Of a DNA stretch of 20,390 nucleotides, positions 5,330 through 14,123 are shown piece after piece. Every line of letters begins with the position of its first letter. Position 1 is the first letter of the stretch. Source of the DNA: a virus (taxonomy: Duplodnaviria > Heunggongvirae > Uroviricota > Caudoviricetes). The translations under genes and the position numbers were made by a program. A model generated the notes under the pieces. It was not told the origin of the DNA and did no database searches. It saw nothing but the letters and a program-made list of their open reading frames with translations. The DNA lies in IMG/VR virus record IMGVR_UViG_2579778982_000025, positions 1-20,390 of that record, one strand, 5' to 3'.

Positions 5330-5460
5330 CTGGAGTTAGGCCAGTAGTATGATGCTCGCAAAACGAGATCCAATTTAGATCCTTTTACTGGTGGATTATC
5401 GTTCGATCAGTGAGAGACTTCGTGCATGACCGAAAGTGTTGTGGTAGAGTTCTCTTAAAA

Positions 5461-5473: not shown

Positions 5474-5511
5474 TTATGATTGTGGGTGTCTGGTTGGAAA
5501 CTGACCAGATA

Positions 5512-5630
5512 TGGAAACAAAAAGCCCGCAGATAAATCTGCGGGCTTCTTGCGACATCCACGGAAAACCAACAACAACAATCCATGGGCGCCTCGACAAC
5601 TCCCATTATACGTTGGTTTTCCGTGGACGC
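5512..5630 (-). ncRNA. candidate CopA-like antisense RNA of the repA leader (IncFII-type copy-number control)
   Basis: Two hairpins in the repA leader. A long stem-loop has a 15-bp stem ccacggaaaaccaac (5558-5572) / gttggttttccgtgg (5612-5626) and a ~39-nt loop. On the minus strand it is followed by aagcccgcaga-ttta-tctgcgggctt (5522-5547) and then a T-run (complement of 5509-5520), a rho-independent terminator oriented for minus-strand transcription. The RNA ends are not mapped. Confidence 0.45.
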
Positions 5631-5642
5631 AAGAGCGAACAT

Positions 5643-6491
5643 ATGGATAGACCAATGCCGTCTCTACGTTCCGCTTACGTTTGTAATTTGTCGCCGGAGT
5701 TCCAGCCTCCAAAGCACCATACGCACAAGCTGCCGCTGGTGTTATCTGATGCTTTACAGCGCATTAATGGGCGTGATCTTACGTGTGAGGTTGCGTTCTA
5801 CGTTAATCAACCGTCAGAGCGGAAGCGCCGGATAAACGAGCATCGTCGTCGGGCGATTAATGCTGTGATCGCTGCGATTTTGCACCATGTAAACATCATT
5901 TCTAAGCGGGTTCTGGCTAGTGCTGAGGCGTTGGCTGATTTTTGCGGCCTGTCTACCGTATCCGAAGCTGGGAACAAGTCTATAACGCGCTGTACAAGGG
6001 CGTTGTCGCAACTGAAAGCGTTAGGGTTTATTGATTATGAACGTCGCTGGGATCGGGTGAATAAACAGTATTGGCCAGCGAAAATAGAGATTCGTGATCA
6101 ACTGCTGGAAACCGTTGGTATTACTGAACAAGCATGGAGACGTGCGGTTAGCCAGAAACTTAATTACTTCAATGCGAAGAATAGCGAACGGCTTAAAAAA
6201 GCGATAACGGAGGCTGATTATAAGCGTATTGTTATTCAGGAGCAGATGGAGAATGTATGGCGTCAGAGGAAGACGGCCAGAGAGATAAAGGCAAAACAGA
6301 AAGCAGCGGAGAGAGCTGCGCGTCTTGTTCGGGAAAAGGGAGAGGCCGAACTTCGTCATCAAATCACTAGAGAGGTTAGCCAGGAATTTGCTGATGGCAT
6401 GTATCCTGGAGCTGACCTTGCATATTTACGATCCCTCGTTGAGCAGCGTTATAACAGGTTAAGAAAGACCTGGAAATCACTCCAACATTAA
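5643..6491 (+). CDS. repA: plasmid replication initiator RepA (IncFII RepA1-like)
   Basis: ...GNKSITRCTRALSQLKALGFIDYERRWD... resembles the R100/R1 RepA1 motif (..KLSITRATRALTFLSELGLITYQ..), with an Arg/Lys-rich C-terminal half. Preceded by antisense-RNA-like hairpins and followed by a DnaA box plus AT-rich region. Start at ATG 5643 (MDRPMPSLRS...) is preferred because the ORF-track start at 5511 lies inside the antisense terminator hairpin. An IncFII-type leader peptide may exist in another frame ending at 5648-5650, but I cannot place its start. Confidence 0.75.
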   Translation: MDRPMPSLRSAYVCNLSPEFQPPKHHTHKLPLVLSDALQRINGRDLTCEVAFYVNQPSERKRRINEHRRRAINAVIAAILHHVNIISKRVLASAEALADFCGLSTVSEAGNKSITRCTRALSQLKALGFIDYERRWDRVNKQYWPAKIEIRDQLLETVGITEQAWRRAVSQKLNYFNAKNSERLKKAITEADYKRIVIQEQMENVWRQRKTAREIKAKQKAAERAARLVREKGEAELRHQITREVSQEFADGMYPGADLAYLRSLVEQRYNRLRKTWKSLQH

Positions 6492-8997: not shown

Positions 8998-9085
8998 CTG
9001 AAATGTCTTTTTCAAGACCTTGCCAATAAGCTAAACAAAAATGTTTAATCATTCGCCTAAAAAAACACCAGTCACTATTATTTAT

Positions 9086-9186
9086 ATAATTATATATTTA
9101 TATAAAAAGTGCTTTACAGGTGGGAAAAAATTTCCTAAGGTTATACCCGAAACCGAGCGATACCCGCCCTGGTTAAACCGGAGATA
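9086..9186 (+). promoter_or_regulatory. repeated promoter / 5'UTR cassette, copy 1
   Basis: Near-identical to 19153..19252. Contains TTTACA - 17 bp - TAAGGT (TATGGT in copy 2) promoter-like hexamers, a ~55-nt leader and a GGAG RBS, preceded by AT-rich palindromes. Confidence 0.5.
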
Positions 9187-9191
9187 ACCCG

Positions 9192-9635: not shown

Positions 9636-9908
9636 ATGACGGGTTATGAATTGAAATTATGGCGTCGTGGGATGAACTGGACGCAGGAGCGAGCCGCCGA
9701 AGAATTTGGGATATCGTTGGCTACATATAAGCGATATGAGAAGGGGGAGCCGCCGAGGGTCATTGAGATGGCCATTCGCGTTCTGTCGTTTGACGATATG
9801 GTGAAGGATCTTTCACACCTTGATAAAGACGCGATTCTGTTAAGGCTGCAAACCCTTGTATGGGAAAAGGTTAAAGTGTCGTCAGAATTGGAACAAGGGA
9901 TCAAATGA
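9636..9908 (+). CDS. XRE-family HTH transcriptional regulator
   Basis: MTGYELKLWRRGMNWTQERAAEEFGISLATYKRYEKGE.... RBS GAGGAGG (9624-9630). The ORF-track start 9603 is upstream of the RBS. Confidence 0.7.
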   Translation: MTGYELKLWRRGMNWTQERAAEEFGISLATYKRYEKGEPPRVIEMAIRVLSFDDMVKDLSHLDKDAILLRLQTLVWEKVKVSSELEQGIK

Positions 9909-9957
9909 TCCTTTACGGATCGTTTTATGGTGGTGTAATGTAAGCGCCAGAAAGACA

Positions 9958-9985
9958 AAAACCGCCTTGCCGGGCGGTTTTCAGT
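9958..9985 (+). terminator. rho-independent terminator
   Basis: aaaaccgcc-ttgccg-ggcggtttt hairpin, then tcag. Confidence 0.5.
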
Positions 9986-10543
9986 CTGAAATTTAAATCT
10001 TGCTTGGTAGGCTGGATTTAAAAAGACACCTCTTGATTGGGGCGGCTTTCTTGCGTCTAAAGATAATCAAATCTTTTTGCGCCTGCAACCCCTTTTTTAC
10101 TGGTGCCTGTTTCAGACTCACGCTCGCGTCGTTGTCTTTGCCACTTCGTTGGGTTCGGTGTTTTTGGGCGGAGTGGCGCGCGGGTATGCGTACAAGGGGA
10201 AAGTGTGCTGACGCAAGCCAGGAACAGCGATCTAAACTAAGTCGAGTCTGAGAAAGGCAGGAGTGCGACAACTCGCCTGTGCTCTATGAGCAGAAGAAGG
10301 TATATCAGACGACCAATGGCATGATTGTGGGCCACAGGGCGCACACGGCGGCGAAGCATTGGAAACGATGTGGAGCTATCTGGTGGCATGAGTTCCGGTA
10401 CTCGATCTCGAGCTTTTTTTGATGCTTTTGAGAAGGGGCCGGAACTCCGGTAAAGGGCACCCTGTATGGGGGGAGGGGGGGTTGTGTCTAAAGGAAGATC
10501 CAATACGATATTGCTTTACCCTTATATCTAAAAGGAGATTTCT

Positions 10544-11179
10544 ATGGGGATGCTGGTGGCGTTTATTATTAGCCTGATTTTGTGTTTCTTCGTAGTTCGT
10601 GGTGCATATCGGAAACAATGTGGCCCATCTTCTGGTAGTAAGTTCAAAGCTGTTTTAGTGAGTGGGTTTCTTGGGATTGCTACTTTTGTTGTTGTTAATA
10701 CTCTTGCTGCTGTGGCCTTGATTCCAGAAGACTCCGGCACTACGGCTACTACCGGAGCTGCTTTCGATGGCGTGACCGTAGATAAGTTTAAGCAGCTATA
10801 TAATGATGACCTTGAAGGTATCGCTACATCAGGAAAATCCACCTCCACTATAAGAATTAAGTCAGTTAAACAAGGTAACAACACCGTTGAATTTGCCATC
10901 AATTCATCTGTTAACGGTCGAGCTAGAGTTGATAAGGATGGGAAGATTTCAGAGTTATTATGGCGAGTATCTAAGCCTAGCTCTGATTCCTTGCTTTCTA
11001 TGGCCGTAGCTGTTGAAGTCTTGGATGCATCAAGTGATAGAGACACAGTGATCGCGCAGTTAGAGCAGATTGTTAAATCTGATACGCAGAAAGCTGAGTT
11101 TAAGACTAAGAGAGGCGAGTATTACGTTTCTCGTGACAAATCAGGGCACGTGTCGCTACTGATTACACCGAAATATTAA
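10544..11179 (+). CDS. membrane protein with two predicted N-terminal transmembrane helices, function unknown
   Basis: Strong RBS AAGGAG 7 nt upstream. Hydrophobic segments MLVAFIISLILCFFVV and VLVSGFLGIATFVVVNTLAAVALI, then a Ser/Thr-rich soluble domain. Confidence 0.65.
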   Translation: MGMLVAFIISLILCFFVVRGAYRKQCGPSSGSKFKAVLVSGFLGIATFVVVNTLAAVALIPEDSGTTATTGAAFDGVTVDKFKQLYNDDLEGIATSGKSTSTIRIKSVKQGNNTVEFAINSSVNGRARVDKDGKISELLWRVSKPSSDSLLSMAVAVEVLDASSDRDTVIAQLEQIVKSDTQKAEFKTKRGEYYVSRDKSGHVSLLITPKY

Positions 11180-11188
11180 GAATTGAAG

Positions 11189-11216
11189 AAGCGCCCAAAT
11201 CGGGCGCTTTGTTTTA
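11189..11216. terminator. bidirectional terminator
   Basis: aagcgccc-aaatc-gggcgctt followed by tgtttt, between convergent genes. Confidence 0.6.
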
Positions 11217-12356
11217 TGGTTTTGCACCTGCGGCCAGTTTATCCGCCGATATCTTTATCAGTTCCTGTAGTGTCCTGGCTGGTAGGTTTGCATCCAGTAC
11301 GCTGAGTATGCTGCTGTGATCTGCCTGGTCGACTACTTTGCCTGTCGGTGGTAGTAGCTTGAGCTGAGGATTCAGGTTTTCGTCAAAGCTGATCAGTGCT
11401 CTGGCGTTTCTGAGCAGATCAAGAAGTAAGGCTGATATCACATTTTCCTGAGTCATTGCTGGCAGATTTAGCGCCGCTTTGGTTTTCCCTGTTGCCTTGT
11501 CAAACTCCTTGATTAGTTCCTTCCTGTAGTTCGGTTCCGTTAATAGCCGATTATGCTCTGTTGCCGCGCGGATAATCGTTTTTTCCTGGTACAGTCGTTT
11601 AGCCAGATCACGCTCGTACTGTGTTTTTAACACGCTGCTGATAGCGTTAAAGGCTTCAATGTAGGCCAGCTTGATATCTTTCACGCTTGGACCGTCGATG
11701 CTCTCCATGAGTAAGGTAAATCCGTCTTTTGTCATGCGATAGATTGTTATTTCGCGGTCGCTTCCTTCCAGCGGTCGTTGCTCTTTAAAGAAGTGACGCG
11801 CCGCAGCCGTGCGAGGAATGCGTAGCGCATCGATGGCCATAACGATGGAATTGTTTGTGGTGCTGAATGCCTGGGCAACATCGGCTGAGGTTGTGAGTGG
11901 CTCGTTGTTGCACACTTTAATGTAAAACATCGGTTTGGCGTTGAGCGTATCGACAACCTCACGAGCATTGTTTGGCGAGACGGTAACGGTCGCGGCCGTT
12001 TGCGCGTTCTGGTTGAAGTAGCAGTCTTCCAGCCGTTCGAACACATCCCACGCTTGGTTAGTTTCAAGCATTTTGGCGTGACGTGCAGCCCCGCGTTCGG
12101 TCCAGAGGATTAGTTTTCTAACGTTATTCGCGATGGTTTGAAAATCTCTTAAAGAGATTTTCAAACTTTGGAGATCTGTACCTTTTACAACTATGAAATG
12201 TTTTCCTTCTGTAAACCGGGACTTATTACGGTGGTGATTTCTGTGAAGACATTCGACGCTACAGCCATATAGTTTGGCAAGCAGCTCCGTGGTGATAACG
12301 GGGATCTGGTTATGCAGGATAGGCTGTAGGGTGTTAACGGTCGGAAGCGTTTTCAT
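11214..12356 (-). CDS. phage antirepressor-like protein (ORF6N/Rha-type N-terminal DNA-binding domains, long C-terminal region)
   Basis: 380 aa. N-terminal ...ITTELLAKLYGCSVECLHRNHHRNKSRFTEGKHFIVVKG... resembles ORF6N-type antirepressor domains; a second similar segment ...TTSADVAQAFSTTNNSIVMAIDAL follows. Family assignment is from memory of motifs only. Confidence 0.55.
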   Translation of the reverse strand: MKTLPTVNTLQPILHNQIPVITTELLAKLYGCSVECLHRNHHRNKSRFTEGKHFIVVKGTDLQSLKISLRDFQTIANNVRKLILWTERGAARHAKMLETNQAWDVFERLEDCYFNQNAQTAATVTVSPNNAREVVDTLNAKPMFYIKVCNNEPLTTSADVAQAFSTTNNSIVMAIDALRIPRTAAARHFFKEQRPLEGSDREITIYRMTKDGFTLLMESIDGPSVKDIKLAYIEAFNAISSVLKTQYERDLAKRLYQEKTIIRAATEHNRLLTEPNYRKELIKEFDKATGKTKAALNLPAMTQENVISALLLDLLRNARALISFDENLNPQLKLLPPTGKVVDQADHSSILSVLDANLPARTLQELIKISADKLAAGAKP

Positions 12357-12640
12357 TTTGCACCTCCCATAACTACTTTGGTTACGAGGGAGATTTTTGC
12401 GTCAGAAACAGCGTTATCGTTGCTGGCGATGCGCATAGCTTCGCGCTCGATGATTTCAGCCAGGCGGAATTTATCGGCGTATGAGGCTTTCTTGAGAAGG
12501 ATCTTTACGAGGTTGACGTAATAGTCATGGGGTAAGTTTGTCATGATGATAGTTCCAGTTTTGATATTGGAATAATCACCACCGCTGACGCCAATCAGTG
12601 AGGTGGTGAGACGTACAGGGTTGGCGTAACCGGTCATCAT
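12353..12640 (-). CDS. hypothetical protein
   Basis: Stop overlaps the start of the antirepressor-like gene in an ATGA arrangement, suggesting translational coupling. Start ambiguous between 12640 and an internal ATG (MTNLPHD...). Confidence 0.4.
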   Translation of the reverse strand: MMTGYANPVRLTTSLIGVSGGDYSNIKTGTIIMTNLPHDYYVNLVKILLKKASYADKFRLAEIIEREAMRIASNDNAVSDAKISLVTKVVMGGAK

Positions 12641-12844
12641 GATACCCGGCGAGCCTTACGGCTCCCCCGCACGCCCCACCATAATTCGGGTGTAGCTGTG
12701 CTTTACGCATAAAAAAACCGCTAACGCGGTATGCGCCATGATGATTATCGGGACGCCAATCCCGACCGTAGATTTTGCTACGGCTCGGAAAGTGTCCACC
12801 AATGGCGCATTTATGTCAATACAGCGGGATTTTAACAGACTAAA

Positions 12845-13739: not shown

Positions 13740-13971
13740 GTAGGTTACTGATTTTGTGAAAATAAACTGTTTTTTTCGTTTAATTTCTTTCCTATTACTA
13801 ATCTTAAAATAATCGTAAAATACCTGTGGACCTTCCCGCCGATTCGCACCCGGGCACCGACTTTAGGGGAGGATTTCCTGTTGCCGTACATGCAAGCACA
13901 AGCAGCCGTGCTTGCTCTCGCGTTGTTTTCGTCGGTGGGGATGTCGTGAAACGGCCTGTAAGGGCCACACA

Positions 13972-14094
13972 ATGAAAAAATACTACATGTGTATTTTTAT
14001 CGTTGTTACTGGAGCTTTGTTTACGCCACATGGGGAGGGTTGGAAGATTACTGATAACGCTCTGAATGTGACGATAAACATTAGCAGCAAGTAG
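13972..14094 (+). CDS. small hydrophobic peptide (40 aa), candidate small membrane protein or type I toxin
   Basis: MKKYYMCIFIVVTGALFTPHGEGWKITDNALNVTINISSK. RBS AGGG 7 nt upstream. Strong terminator immediately downstream. Confidence 0.4.
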   Translation: MKKYYMCIFIVVTGALFTPHGEGWKITDNALNVTINISSK

Positions 14095-14099
14095 CGATT

Positions 14100-14123
14100 A
14101 GGCCCCTTCGGGGGCCTTTTTTA
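14100..14123 (+). terminator. rho-independent terminator
   Basis: aggcccc-ttcg-ggggcct followed by tttttta. Confidence 0.7.

Follow-up and report, generated by a model that had tools for sequence, protein, structure and literature searches.

A stretch of about 560 bp in an Escherichia coli virus that is kept as a plasmid is poor in open reading frames (ORFs), and we ask here what it does. The window analyzed, a 20,390-nucleotide stretch of DNA (IMG/VR record IMGVR_UViG_2579778982_000025, positions 1 to 20,390), comes from a P2-like phage-plasmid of about 48 kb with an IncFII RepA. A first-pass annotation, made from the sequence alone, had placed the region at positions 9986 to 10543, listed nested inverted repeats and a G tract upstream of a membrane-protein gene, and proposed an sRNA gene, a phase-variation tract controlling that gene, or a G-quadruplex-forming element. 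The reading that we favor, with a probability of about 60% on the strength of sequence comparison, is that a highly diverged RNA-primed origin of replication of the ColE1 family has its core here.

Genomic context

The phage-plasmid belongs to a family of circular elements of about 48 kb, represented by 72 E. coli records together with Salmonella, Klebsiella, and three Yersinia phages; none of the family's records has a gene annotated at 9986-10543. Besides the RepA replicon, it carries a ParA system and toxin-antitoxin genes. Phage replication genes are missing from the complete plasmid annotation, a RepL homologue is absent, no rom/rop gene was seen, and a tRNA/tmRNA scan found none. A C4 RNA and an antirepressor operon, the latter convergent to the candidate origin, adjoin it. 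MOB-suite typing in PLSDB assigns no ColRNAI replicon to the family's plasmids. A 32-kb deletion derivative retains both repA and the element and so does not separate the two replicons. GC skew in the complete plasmid is positive throughout, even where a block of genes lies on the minus strand, consistent with unidirectional plus-direction replication; because it rises monotonically with no inflection, it is uninformative for mapping an origin position.

The left part of the functional block, from about 9897 onward, is overlapped by the 3′ end of a helix-turn-helix (HTH) gene related to controller proteins that adjoin restriction endonuclease genes in other plasmids; tblastn with the HTH protein returned mostly unrelated contexts. 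More distant phage-plasmid relatives, reached via a 126-aa neighbor protein, have neither the HTH gene nor the element, which suggests that the pair was acquired as a module. A metagenome scan yielded 15 loci with 83 to 99% identity. Two viral DNA-pattern scans for wider relatives recovered close relatives only, and a two-anchor pattern run on one genome per species gave 37 matches, none related by blastn. Searching PLSDB by blastn found the phage-plasmid family only and none of its more than 5,000 ColE1-like plasmids. Literature searches on the phage names, the ATCC 25922 plasmid accession, and the G-tract sequence turned up no mention of the element.

Extent, conservation, and structure

The noncoding block extends from about 9897 to 10494. 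The limits first assigned to it were therefore too far right on the left side, since the block begins near 9897, and too generous on the other, where conservation ends at about 10494 and not at 10543. The description as ORF-poor stands: the region holds no conserved ORF, and each ORF of at least 40 aa on either strand is frameshifted or stopped in at least 7 of 17 relatives, despite which the DNA is 86 to 91% conserved. Between E. coli and Salmonella copies, positions 9931 to 10480 are 84 to 100% identical, versus 46 to 78% for the adjacent genes. The element is under strong purifying selection.

It also encodes a structured RNA on the plus strand, with covariation. The predicted plus-strand pairs (n = 171) are 99.2% paired, and 7 have changed on both sides, a count reached in 0 of 500 shuffles and compared with 0 to 2 in slid controls; many G-U pairs are possible on the plus strand only. 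This covariation rests on few lineages because the family is narrow (identity at least 83%). The covariance-model search for a known noncoding RNA family that the first-pass annotation had proposed came back empty: no Rfam family matches the region in a gathering-threshold scan of the whole window or in a permissive scan of the region with E values up to 10. An sRNA gene in the usual sense is not supported, the sense RNA being predicted at about 510 to 545 nt and a candidate antisense RNA at about 100 nt.

The individual motifs listed at the outset are nearly all where they had been placed. The inverted repeat GAGTTCCGG/CCGGAACTC occupies 10390-10398 and 10439-10447 (a 2-nt offset from the original 10388-10446), the palindrome CTCGATCTCGAG lies at 10402-10413, the T7 run at 10414-10420, and the downstream ATG at 10544. 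With 21 inverted pairs in 800 nt and a minimum free energy z-score of only −2.2 on either strand, the 9-bp inverted repeat by itself is not beyond chance; the nested repeat stands out from chance through its conservation, its covariation, and its match to a ColE1 structural model. The evidence supports the nested inverted repeat and the G-rich sequence being parts of one functional element, with the following features.

9899-9902, 9907-9910, and 9918-9921, plus strand: three GATC (Dam) sites, overlapping the putative sense-RNA promoter
9912-9941, plus strand: putative RNA II-like promoter (−35 TTTACG at 9912-9917, 18-nt spacer, −10 TAATGT at 9936-9941)
9949-10494, plus strand: predicted RNA II-like untranslated pre-primer, with covariation and no conserved ORF
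9953-9987 (core 9958-9981), both strands: stem-loop I of the sense RNA, doubling as the antisense terminator hairpin
9992-10022: stem-loop II, where the element is least conserved
10025-10050: stem-loop III, whose helix 4 is 100% paired
10053 to 9950, minus strand: candidate RNA I-like antisense RNA of about 104 nt, comprising three stem-loops and closed by the minus-strand terminator
10060-10088, minus strand: putative antisense promoter (−35 TTGCAG, complement of 10083-10088; 17-nt spacer; −10 TATCTT, complement of 10060-10065)
10140-10177, plus strand: hairpin with five compensatory pairs (helix 11, 5 pairs changed on both sides)
10356-10371, plus strand: GAAA-tetraloop hairpin GCAUUG-GAAA-CGAUGU, counterpart of ColE1 CCAGGGGGAAACGCCUGG
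10390-10447, plus strand: long origin-proximal hairpin, the nested inverted repeat, counterpart of ColE1 GGGUUUCGCC...UGAUGCUCGUCAGGGGGGCGGAGCC
10449-10456, plus strand: CGGUAAAG, first candidate primer 3′ end, aligned to the ColE1 switch sequence AUGGAAAAA(C)
10468-10481, plus strand: G6AG7 tract GGGGGGAGGGGGGG, just downstream of the aligned RNA-to-DNA switch point

Similarity to ColE1 origins

In profile and covariance-model comparisons, both ends of the element are significantly similar to real ColE1 origins, in the right order, on the right strand, and at the right spacing. Pairwise Smith-Waterman alignment to single ColE1 plasmids was only marginal, z reaching about 4 for the 5′ end and 3.3 for the 3′ end, and profiles were therefore needed. 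An nhmmer profile was built from 10 real ColE1-like origins, the query sequence having been verified as 100% identical to NC_009716.1. The profile has one significant match in the 20-kb window, at 9885-9980 on the plus strand (E = 3.5e-6), which spans the three GATC sites, the TAATGT −10, and stem-loop I and aligns the profile's TAATCT −10 and downstream A-run with the putative promoter stretch. The match recurs in 8 relatives (E = 1e-6 to 5e-5), and in 252 kb of unrelated DNA the best match reaches only E = 0.41.

The GATC triplet, spaced GATC-N4-GATC-N7-GATC, is the tightest in the window (P = 0.07 under random placement); GATC-N4-GATC-N8-GATC is found upstream of the RNA II promoter in 4 of the 10 ColE1-like plasmids compared. 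Both hexamers of the putative RNA II-like promoter are invariant in relatives and its spacer is variable. The sense RNA probably starts near A9949, a position placed by alignment only. A promoter scan requiring at least 9 of 12 consensus positions called neither the sense nor the antisense promoter proposed here.

For the other end, a covariance model (R1) was made of the origin-proximal 150 nt of ColE1 from nine ColE1-like plasmids. Its best match in the window is full length, at 10322-10467 on the plus strand, and is also the best of the whole 48.7-kb plasmid. The score of 16.7 bits falls within the noise of GC-rich unrelated DNA (maximum, 18.9 bits in 96 kb), so the 3′ case rests on the position of the match, on the scores at the equivalent site in seven relatives (25 to 33 bits; E = 2e-6 to 2e-4), and on the independent 5′ match. 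The central 270 nt or so (10055-10320) has no detectable ColE1 similarity; the hairpin at 10140-10177 within it is precisely missing from one metagenomic variant (locus L061).

The GAAA hairpin (helix 19) is aligned to its ColE1 counterpart by both nhmmer and the covariance model. Its variants GUGCUG/CGGCGC, GUACUG/CGGUAC, and GUGUUG/CGGCAC are all paired and are independent compensatory variants beyond the 7 pairs counted above. The origin-proximal hairpin (helix 20) comprises 21 pairs, 99% paired, with three one-sided changes from G-U to G-C or A-U. The palindrome and T7 run that it encloses had been likened to a terminator; this hairpin aligns instead to the internal hairpin of the ColE1 origin-proximal structure. 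Within the long hairpin, AAGGGGCC (10433-10440) aligns to the ColE1 G6 run. The placement of CGGUAAAG comes from the covariance-model alignment and marks a predicted switch; according to the work of Tomizawa and Masukata, the ColE1 RNA-to-DNA switch reportedly lies in the A-run. Processing of the pre-primer 3′ end is predicted to occur somewhere between about 10449 and 10494. The sense RNA is predicted to be 507 to 545 nt long, depending on whether it is counted from 9949 to the aligned switch, at about 10455, or as far as conservation extends (10494).

Stem-loops I to III and the candidate antisense RNA

Stem-loop I aligns to stem-loop I of ColE1, AAAAACCACC...GGTGGTTT. A terminator scan recognizes it solely on the minus strand, where its U-run, TTTTTGTCTTTCT, is invariant; its plus-strand T-run is only 3 to 4 nt long and is shortened in 11 of 18 relatives. 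In stem-loop II, identity drops to 60 to 74%, versus 92 to 100% in neighboring blocks, and the upper stem changes from GCUU/AGGC to GGUU/GACC and GGUU/AACC with pairing kept. The loop of stem-loop III reads UUGAUU, UCAAUU, UUAAAU, or UUGAAU in relatives. Variation that clusters in this way, in loops and upper stems of the second and third stem-loops, is what one expects of the specificity determinants of an antisense RNA.

Folding predicts three stem-loops for the minus strand from 10056 to 9946, with −32.1 kcal/mol and z = −2.9; 0 of 200 shuffled sequences reached that stability. The predicted start of the candidate antisense RNA corresponds to +105 of the sense RNA, and the ColE1 antisense start is at about +110. 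The putative antisense promoter matches only 7 of 12 consensus positions; its hexamers do not change in any of 18 relatives, and its spacer does so at two positions. Matches to the Rfam RNAI family (RF00106) stay below its gathering score of 47 bits, at 18.1 bits in the window and 19.9 and 17.2 bits in relatives; these matches (15 to 20 bits overall) consist mostly of the palindromic terminator hairpin and are ambiguous as to strand.

The G6AG7 tract

The tract lies exactly where it was first reported. It is specific to this lineage and has no counterpart in the ColE1 plasmids compared. Among 42 retrieved copies, which are assembled consensus sequences with some loci repeating the same contig, 36 are identical; the other six comprise four T-to-G substitutions that leave the length unchanged, one G-to-T substitution, and one tract that is 1 nt shorter (G6AG6, L101). 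A length that is constant in nearly all copies argues against slipped-strand phase variation, as judged from assembled sequences. Conservation continues for 13 nt past the tract and then stops. The tract is also predicted to form a long-range helix with C4U6 at 10085-10098, for which covariation gives no evidence because all 14 pairs are invariant. We consider the tract a candidate R-loop anchor or the candidate 3′ strand of that helix; formation of a G-quadruplex or an R-loop by it is possible.

Proposed mechanism and alternatives

As an origin, the element would work as follows; the transcription starts, the antisense RNA, R-loop formation, and origin activity are all predicted from sequence. 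The weak GATC-rich promoter at about 9912-9941 would drive an untranslated RNA from near 9949. This RNA would fold cotranscriptionally into stem-loops I to III, a long irregular body, the GAAA hairpin, and the origin-proximal hairpin, and would stay hybridized to the template at its G-rich end (AAGGGGCC and G6AG7). RNase H would then cleave it somewhere in 10449-10494, and DNA polymerase I would extend the primer rightwards. The antisense RNA, about 100 nt long and running from about 10053 to 9950, would pair with the nascent stem-loops I to III and block primer formation, thereby setting copy number and incompatibility.

Such an origin could serve either prophage maintenance or lytic replication. 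The IncFII RepA, ParA, and toxin-antitoxin genes already present are typical of low copy number, so that the need for a ColE1-type origin with constitutive activity is not obvious. In a more specific version, which we think unlikely, the element would be the phage's lytic origin, using host enzymes only and silenced in the prophage by the antisense RNA and by Dam/SeqA at the GATC-rich promoter; G6AG7 would be the bacterial counterpart of the mitochondrial CSBII, stalling transcription, anchoring an R-loop (possibly as an RNA-DNA quadruplex), and fixing the primer 3′ end. If true, this would explain how a 48-kb myovirus without recognizable replication genes amplifies its genome.

The element might, on the other hand, be a ColE1-derived origin that no longer initiates and whose RNA has been co-opted, as a stable regulatory or protective prophage RNA or as a unit insulating the convergent antirepressor operon; the origin could have come, for example, with the cointegration of a small plasmid bearing the HTH controller gene. 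We regard this as rather unlikely. It would fit ColE1 homology limited to the two ends, a plasmid with its own RepA replicon, partition system, and toxin-antitoxin genes, an HTH gene akin to controllers beside restriction endonuclease genes, the acquired-module look left by distant relatives without this gene and the element, and a bidirectional terminator that in cargo-less relatives directly follows the element, as it would a discrete RNA gene. However, the ColE1-like remnants are exactly the priming and control parts (GATC promoter, stem-loop I/antisense terminator, origin-proximal hairpin, G-rich segment, and A-run), and the rest of the 48.7-kb plasmid offers no meaningful complementarity that would suggest a target in trans (best, 14 nt; E = 0.085). 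That the ColE1 likeness is convergence or chance, and the RNA an unrelated, family-specific, large structured noncoding RNA of about 420 to 550 nt, appears highly improbable. The lack of an Rfam family even at E values up to 10, the strong structure and conservation, and the predicted 5′-3′ closing helix between 10085-10098 and 10472-10485, typical of stable RNAs, would suit it, but two independent ColE1 models are each best at the matching end, on the same strand and in the same order with ColE1-like spacing, and unrelated-DNA controls score lower.

We give hardly any credence to a 5′ leader or phase-variable switch for the membrane-protein gene, acting by G-tract slippage or by the hairpin and T7 run as an attenuator. 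In this window the element and the ATG at 10544 have no terminator between them, so the gene is probably cotranscribed, and the G6AG6 copy does differ in length. But the gene that the G tract was thought to control (10544-11179) is variable cargo: relatives have a 62-aa gene in its place or nothing, with the bidirectional terminator directly after the element in the latter, and the element itself is unchanged. Conservation also ends 50 nt before the ATG, tract length is kept in 40 of 42 copies, and the tract falls within neither a reading frame nor a promoter spacer. Several further classes were rejected: a type I toxin-antitoxin system of the hok/sok kind (no ORF survives in relatives, and substitutions lack codon periodicity on inspection of the alignment); a CsrB-like sponge (GGA motifs at about chance frequency on inspection); a group I or II intron, retron, TnpB/IscB guide RNA, or type III antitoxin (no partner protein, repeats, or Rfam match); and a restriction-enzyme pseudogene downstream of the controller-like HTH gene, since the region is better conserved than its coding flanks and evolves by compensatory changes.

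Relation to known systems

A diverged ColE1-type origin, the reading we prefer, would sit among several known replicons. ColE1 has an RNA II of about 550 nt and an RNA I of about 100 nt with three stem-loops (PMC8683028), a geometry that the predicted sense RNA and the candidate antisense RNA share. A G-rich stretch upstream of the ColE1 origin is essential (PMC6317783). Like ColE1, pMB1, and p15A, the element has three GATC sites and a TAATNT −10 before a predicted untranslated sense RNA. Shared with ColE1 are also an A-run, GC hairpin, and T-run that form stem-loop I and double as the antisense terminator; three 5′ stem-loops with variable loops; a hairpin with a GGAAAC loop; and a long origin-proximal hairpin with a G-rich 3′ arm, followed by an A-run. 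ColE1 origins replicate by the theta mode, dependent on RNase H and Pol I, and the likeness here is one of sequence and model matches. Unlike ColE1, the element shows no blastn-level similarity, an unrelated center, and a subthreshold RNAI score, has the extra invariant G6AG7 downstream of the aligned switch point, and resides in a 48-kb phage-plasmid with IncFII RepA, ParA, and toxin-antitoxin genes and not in a small multicopy mobilizable plasmid.

Marine RNA-based (MRB) plasmids of Vibrionaceae pair a long RNA II with a short antisense RNA I that have no sequence similarity to ColE1 (Le Roux et al. 2011, PMC3035462; PMC6380287). Their RNAs are described as evolutionarily unrelated to those of ColE1, whereas both ends of our element keep ColE1 similarity. 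RNA-based origins are documented for extrachromosomal mycobacteriophage prophages (Wetzel et al. 2020, PMC7157519). There too a temperate phage is kept as a plasmid with initiation based on RNA and not on a Rep protein, as is the candidate here; those hosts belong to another phylum, and those prophages mostly lack repA, whereas an IncFII repA is present here as well.

Phage P1 has a plasmid origin, oriR/repA, plus a lytic one, oriL/repL, adjoining the c4-icd-ant immunity region. The present phage-plasmid likewise combines a Rep-type replicon with a second candidate origin beside a C4 RNA/antirepressor operon, but it has no RepL homologue, and its second origin would need host enzymes and RNA only. 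Conserved sequence block II (CSBII) of the human mitochondrial H-strand origin has the form G5-6AG7-8. G6AG7 resembles it as a G-run with one A on the nontemplate strand beside RNA-to-DNA transition sites, which are predicted here; the polymerases differ and there is no homology. In mitochondrial H-strand synthesis, a quadruplex of the CSBII G-run anchors an R-loop from which RNase H1 makes the primer, a system that the same source likens to ColE1 (PMC6317783). The tract would offer a simple bacterial system in which to test how a G-run fixes an R-loop primer.

If active, the element would be a second, RNA-primed replicon in a phage-plasmid family, missed by standard replicon typing and annotation. 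It would bear on copy-number control, on compatibility with ColE1-type plasmids and cloning vectors, on the replication of a phage without replication genes, and on the divergence and spread of ColE1-type origins beyond small mobilizable plasmids. If not active, it would still be the most strongly conserved noncoding element of these phage-plasmids and a clear case of selection keeping an origin-derived RNA. About 1.3% of complete E. coli genomes carry a member of the family, the quality-control strain ATCC 25922 among them, and the family's range takes in Citrobacter in addition to Salmonella, Klebsiella, and the Yersinia-infecting phages.

The conserved noncoding block at about 9897 to 10494 is best read as a ColE1-family origin, highly diverged and carried within a phage-plasmid, and we put the probability that it is a descendant or member of that family at roughly 0.8. 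It adds a variant to the known ColE1-type origins and is not a new class. The ColE1-like replicon is unannotated and untyped in these phage-plasmids, a widespread family with a member in E. coli ATCC 25922, and an unusual invariant G-run adjoins its predicted priming site.

Phage-plasmid context

Plasmid and genome searches matched the window at more than 99% identity to circular plasmids of about 48 kb, present in 72 of 5,426 complete E. coli genomes. Other members of this family are plasmids of Salmonella and Klebsiella and the three Yersinia myophages vB_YpM_39, 41, and 44. The annotation of one full plasmid record includes P2-like genes for tail, capsid, terminase, and lysis, along with a ParA system and toxin-antitoxin pairs. 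Features outside the element are as follows.

5511-6491: IncFII-type RepA (annotation of the full record)
10495-11213: cargo slot, between the element's end and the convergent antirepressor gene
12599-12784, minus strand: C4 antisense RNA (81 bits) and isrK (70.9 bits) in tandem (Rfam)

The C4/isrK pair lies upstream of an Ash-like ORF (12353-12640) and an ORF6N/Rha antirepressor gene (11214-12356), which is the P1/P7-type immI arrangement, transcribed toward the element. Given the P2-like virion and lysis genes together with RepA, ParA, toxin-antitoxin pairs, and this immunity region, the 48-kb molecule is a phage-plasmid.

Extent and neighbors

No record annotates a gene between the gene for a helix-turn-helix (HTH) protein (9636-9908, plus strand) and the 211-aa gene starting at 10544. 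Each ORF in this gap is interrupted by a frameshift or a stop in 7 or more of 17 relatives despite 86 to 91% DNA identity, and the gap is therefore truly noncoding. The first-pass annotation had marked 9986-10543 as a possible small RNA gene, phase switch, or G-quadruplex. Every feature it listed was found, with coordinates off by at most 2 nt, and the finding is real and functional-looking, but those specific interpretations were mostly wrong. The limits also shift: conservation begins at about 9897, within the 3′ end of the HTH gene, and ends at about 10494, 13 nt past the G tract (G6AG7, 10468-10481).

The DNA 3′ of the block is variable cargo that differs among relatives. In this window it encodes the 211-aa membrane protein (N-terminal hydrophobic segment; phrog_23465; no Pfam match), and elsewhere 214- to 218-aa homologues, an unrelated 62-aa ORF (ATCC 25922 and the Yersinia phages), or nothing. 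Several Salmonella and Citrobacter plasmids without cargo have a bidirectional terminator, AAAGGGGCC...GGCCCCTTT, and then the convergent antirepressor gene. An exact Chi site, GCTGGTGG, lies just within the cargo gene (10552-10559, plus strand), and a Chi-like CTGGTGG (7/8) lies inside the element at 10380-10386.

The 90-aa HTH protein shares about 42% identity with HTH regulators that, on plasmids of many Enterobacterales, are annotated next to restriction endonuclease genes and look like controller proteins. Its gene always accompanies the element within the phage-plasmid family. In more distant phage relatives (IMG/VR contigs L077 to L080), the 126-aa protein encoded to the left of the element has a 98-aa homologue (47% identity), immediately after whose gene comes the convergent antirepressor gene, and the HTH gene, element, and cargo are all absent. 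Because these relatives lack both and the HTH protein resembles restriction-modification controller proteins of other plasmids, a small plasmid may have been the source of the HTH-plus-origin module. A second conserved noncoding block, located upstream of the gene for the 126-aa protein (9081-9190; 86 to 92% identity between E. coli and Salmonella versus 46 to 74% for the gene itself), is probably a promoter and operator, and transcription from it would run on into the element.

Similarity to ColE1-type origins

The pBR322 origin used as a query (100% identical to NC_009716.1 over 626 nt) matched more than 5,000 PLSDB plasmids at 60 to 100% identity, of which ten, spanning 75 to 100%, were fetched. 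An nhmmer search of the window, on both strands, with a profile of the ten origins gave one significant match (E = 3.5e-6), at 9885-9980 on the plus strand (profile positions 14 to 111). The match was repeated in eight relatives (E = 1e-6 to 5e-5), and the best value in 252 kb of unrelated DNA was E = 0.41. The aligned 5′ ends are as follows.

ColE1 profile: GATCAAAGGATC...GATCC...GTAATCT...AAACGAAAAAACCACC-loop-GGTGGTTT
Window: GATCAAATGATCC...GATCG...GTAATGT...AAAGACAAAAACCGCC-loop-GGCGGTTT

The alignment places the predicted start of the sense RNA near A9949. Three GATC sites in 23 bp and a TAATGT hexamer precede a hairpin at 9956-9983, a layout that recalls the RNA II promoter and RNA I terminator of pMB1/ColE1. 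In a terminator scan the hairpin was the better terminator on the minus strand, where its U-run is invariant; the plus-strand T-run is only 3 to 4 nt long, and 11 of 18 relatives have a shortened version.

For the 3′ end, the final ~150 nt of RNA II from nine ColE1-like plasmids served to build a covariance model. Its best match in the window was full length, at 10322-10467 on the plus strand (16.7 bits, rough E = 0.006; runner-up, E = 0.22), and was also the top match across the whole 48.7-kb plasmid. The window's copy alone is unconvincing, because 96 kb of unrelated, mostly GC-rich DNA reached 18.9 bits. The family as a whole is convincing, with 24.9 to 33.1 bits (E = 2e-6 to 2e-4) at the same position in seven relatives, as is the coincidence with the independent 5′ match. 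In the converse search, with an element-family profile, the matches near the origin of ColE1 plasmids were weak, though colinear in repeated instances. The covariance-model alignment pairs the following features.

10356-10371: GAAA hairpin, equivalent to ColE1 CCAGGGGGAAACGCCUGG
10390-10447: nested inverted repeat, including a T-run and UGAUGCU, equivalent to the long ColE1 hairpin GGGUUUCGCC...UUGAGCGUCGAUUUUUGUGAUGCUCGUCAGGGGGGCGGAGCC
10433-10440: AAGGGGCC, equivalent to the ColE1 G6 run
10449-10456: CGGUAAAG, equivalent to ColE1 AUGGAAAAAC, the RNA-to-DNA switch

From the inferred start, the distance is about 507 nt to the aligned switch and about 545 nt to the end of conservation; ColE1 RNA II is about 550 nt long (PMC8683028). 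A putative antisense promoter (TTGCAG-N17-TATCTT, complement of 10088-10060, minus strand), with an RNA start predicted near 10053, and the terminator at 9983-9956 delimit a candidate antisense RNA of about 104 nt, which folds into three stem-loops (z = -2.9; 0 of 200 shuffles equally stable). As modeled, it agrees in size and in its three stem-loops with RNA I, a complement of nascent RNA II about 100 nt long (PMC8683028). Sequence differences among relatives cluster in the loops and upper stems of stem-loops II and III, where antisense specificity would lie. Weaknesses are that both putative promoters, sense and antisense, fit the consensus poorly in a promoter scan and that Rfam RNAI scored at most 20 bits (threshold, 47) in the window and relatives.

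The G tract lies inside the conserved block, 12 to 26 nt downstream of the aligned switch point, and has no counterpart in the ColE1 plasmids compared. Of 42 retrieved copies (some loci are the same contig repeated), 36 have exactly this tract. Four copies have G6AG8 through a T-to-G substitution, with the total length the same, and the other two have a G-to-T substitution and, in a 32-kb derivative, G6AG6. This length pattern, read from consensus assemblies only, does not fit a phase-variable tract. Thermodynamic folding pairs the tract with C4U6 at 10085-10098, a helix neither supported nor refuted because all 14 of its pairs are invariant. A G-rich stretch upstream of the ColE1 origin is essential for R-loop formation, and in human mitochondria the CSBII G-run serves as the anchor of the primer R-loop (PMC6317783). 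The G tract may, by analogy, anchor an RNA-DNA hybrid, with the true primer end just past it, near 10490; for this reason the switch is predicted to lie in the interval 10449-10494.

Selection as structured RNA

Between E. coli and Salmonella, 9931-10480 is 84 to 100% identical per 50-nt window, except for the hairpin at 9981-10030 (60 to 74%), and adjoining protein-coding genes are only 46 to 78% identical. In Klebsiella and Citrobacter relatives the HTH proteins are 68 to 76% identical and the neighboring element about 90%. RNAalifold (11 sequences) predicted 171 pairs, 99.2% paired, with two-sided changes at 7, a number reached in 0 of 500 column shuffles; structures slid by 1 to 3 columns gave 0 to 2. 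The GAAA-tetraloop hairpin occurs in four stem versions among 18 sequences, each fully paired, and a hairpin at 10140-10177 has five compensatory positions. Many substitutions change G-U to G-C or A-U, compatible with the plus strand only. A permissive Rfam covariance-model scan, the check proposed in the first-pass annotation for a known noncoding RNA family, returned none for the element at E values up to 10.

Two metagenome contigs carry natural deletion variants. L061 (252-758) lacks exactly the hairpin equivalent to 10138-10187 and has the tract G6AG5TG, and L066 (2424-2956) lacks 22 nt equivalent to about 10241-10262. The missing segments may be dispensable, or the copies may be defective.

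Function and alternatives

Retention of exactly the priming and control parts, with compensatory evolution, argues that the element probably still works as an origin. A descendant co-opted for a nonreplicative role would show the same ColE1 matches, and this retention makes it unlikely. A novel large RNA unrelated to ColE1 would fit the compensatory changes and the empty Rfam scan; it is improbable beside the profile and covariance-model matches at the two ends. Least probable is a leader or phase switch of the cargo gene, which does start just downstream of the G tract here; the cargo is replaced or missing in relatives, and the tract is nearly constant in length.

The IncFII RepA replicon, ParA, and toxin-antitoxin modules argue that the origin-like element is not the main maintenance replicon. 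Phage P1 has a plasmid replicon plus a separate lytic replicon beside its c4-ant region; likewise, the element is a candidate second origin beside a plasmid replicon. A possible use in lytic growth is consistent with the lack of recognizable phage replication genes in the annotation of the complete plasmid record and with a uniformly positive GC skew. In L069 (NZ_CP028194.1, 1-48684), the skew is above zero in all 1-kb bins except three in the tail-fiber region, stays positive over the minus-strand genes at 16 to 21 kb, and gives a cumulative curve without a turn, which suggests that replication is unidirectional or that some other strand-wide bias acts. Extrachromosomal mycobacterial prophages provide documented cases of RNA-based origins (PMC7157519).

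Elsewhere in the window, a GATC triplet spanning 42 bp (5367-5408), the second-tightest present, lies just upstream of the IncFII repA. Salmonella chromosomal ryfA encodes the type I toxin TimP. A full-length Rfam match to ryfA (13826-14122, plus strand; 144.7 bits, E = 1e-37) sits between the ParA operon and the immunity region and may represent a type I toxin-antitoxin locus carried on the plasmid.
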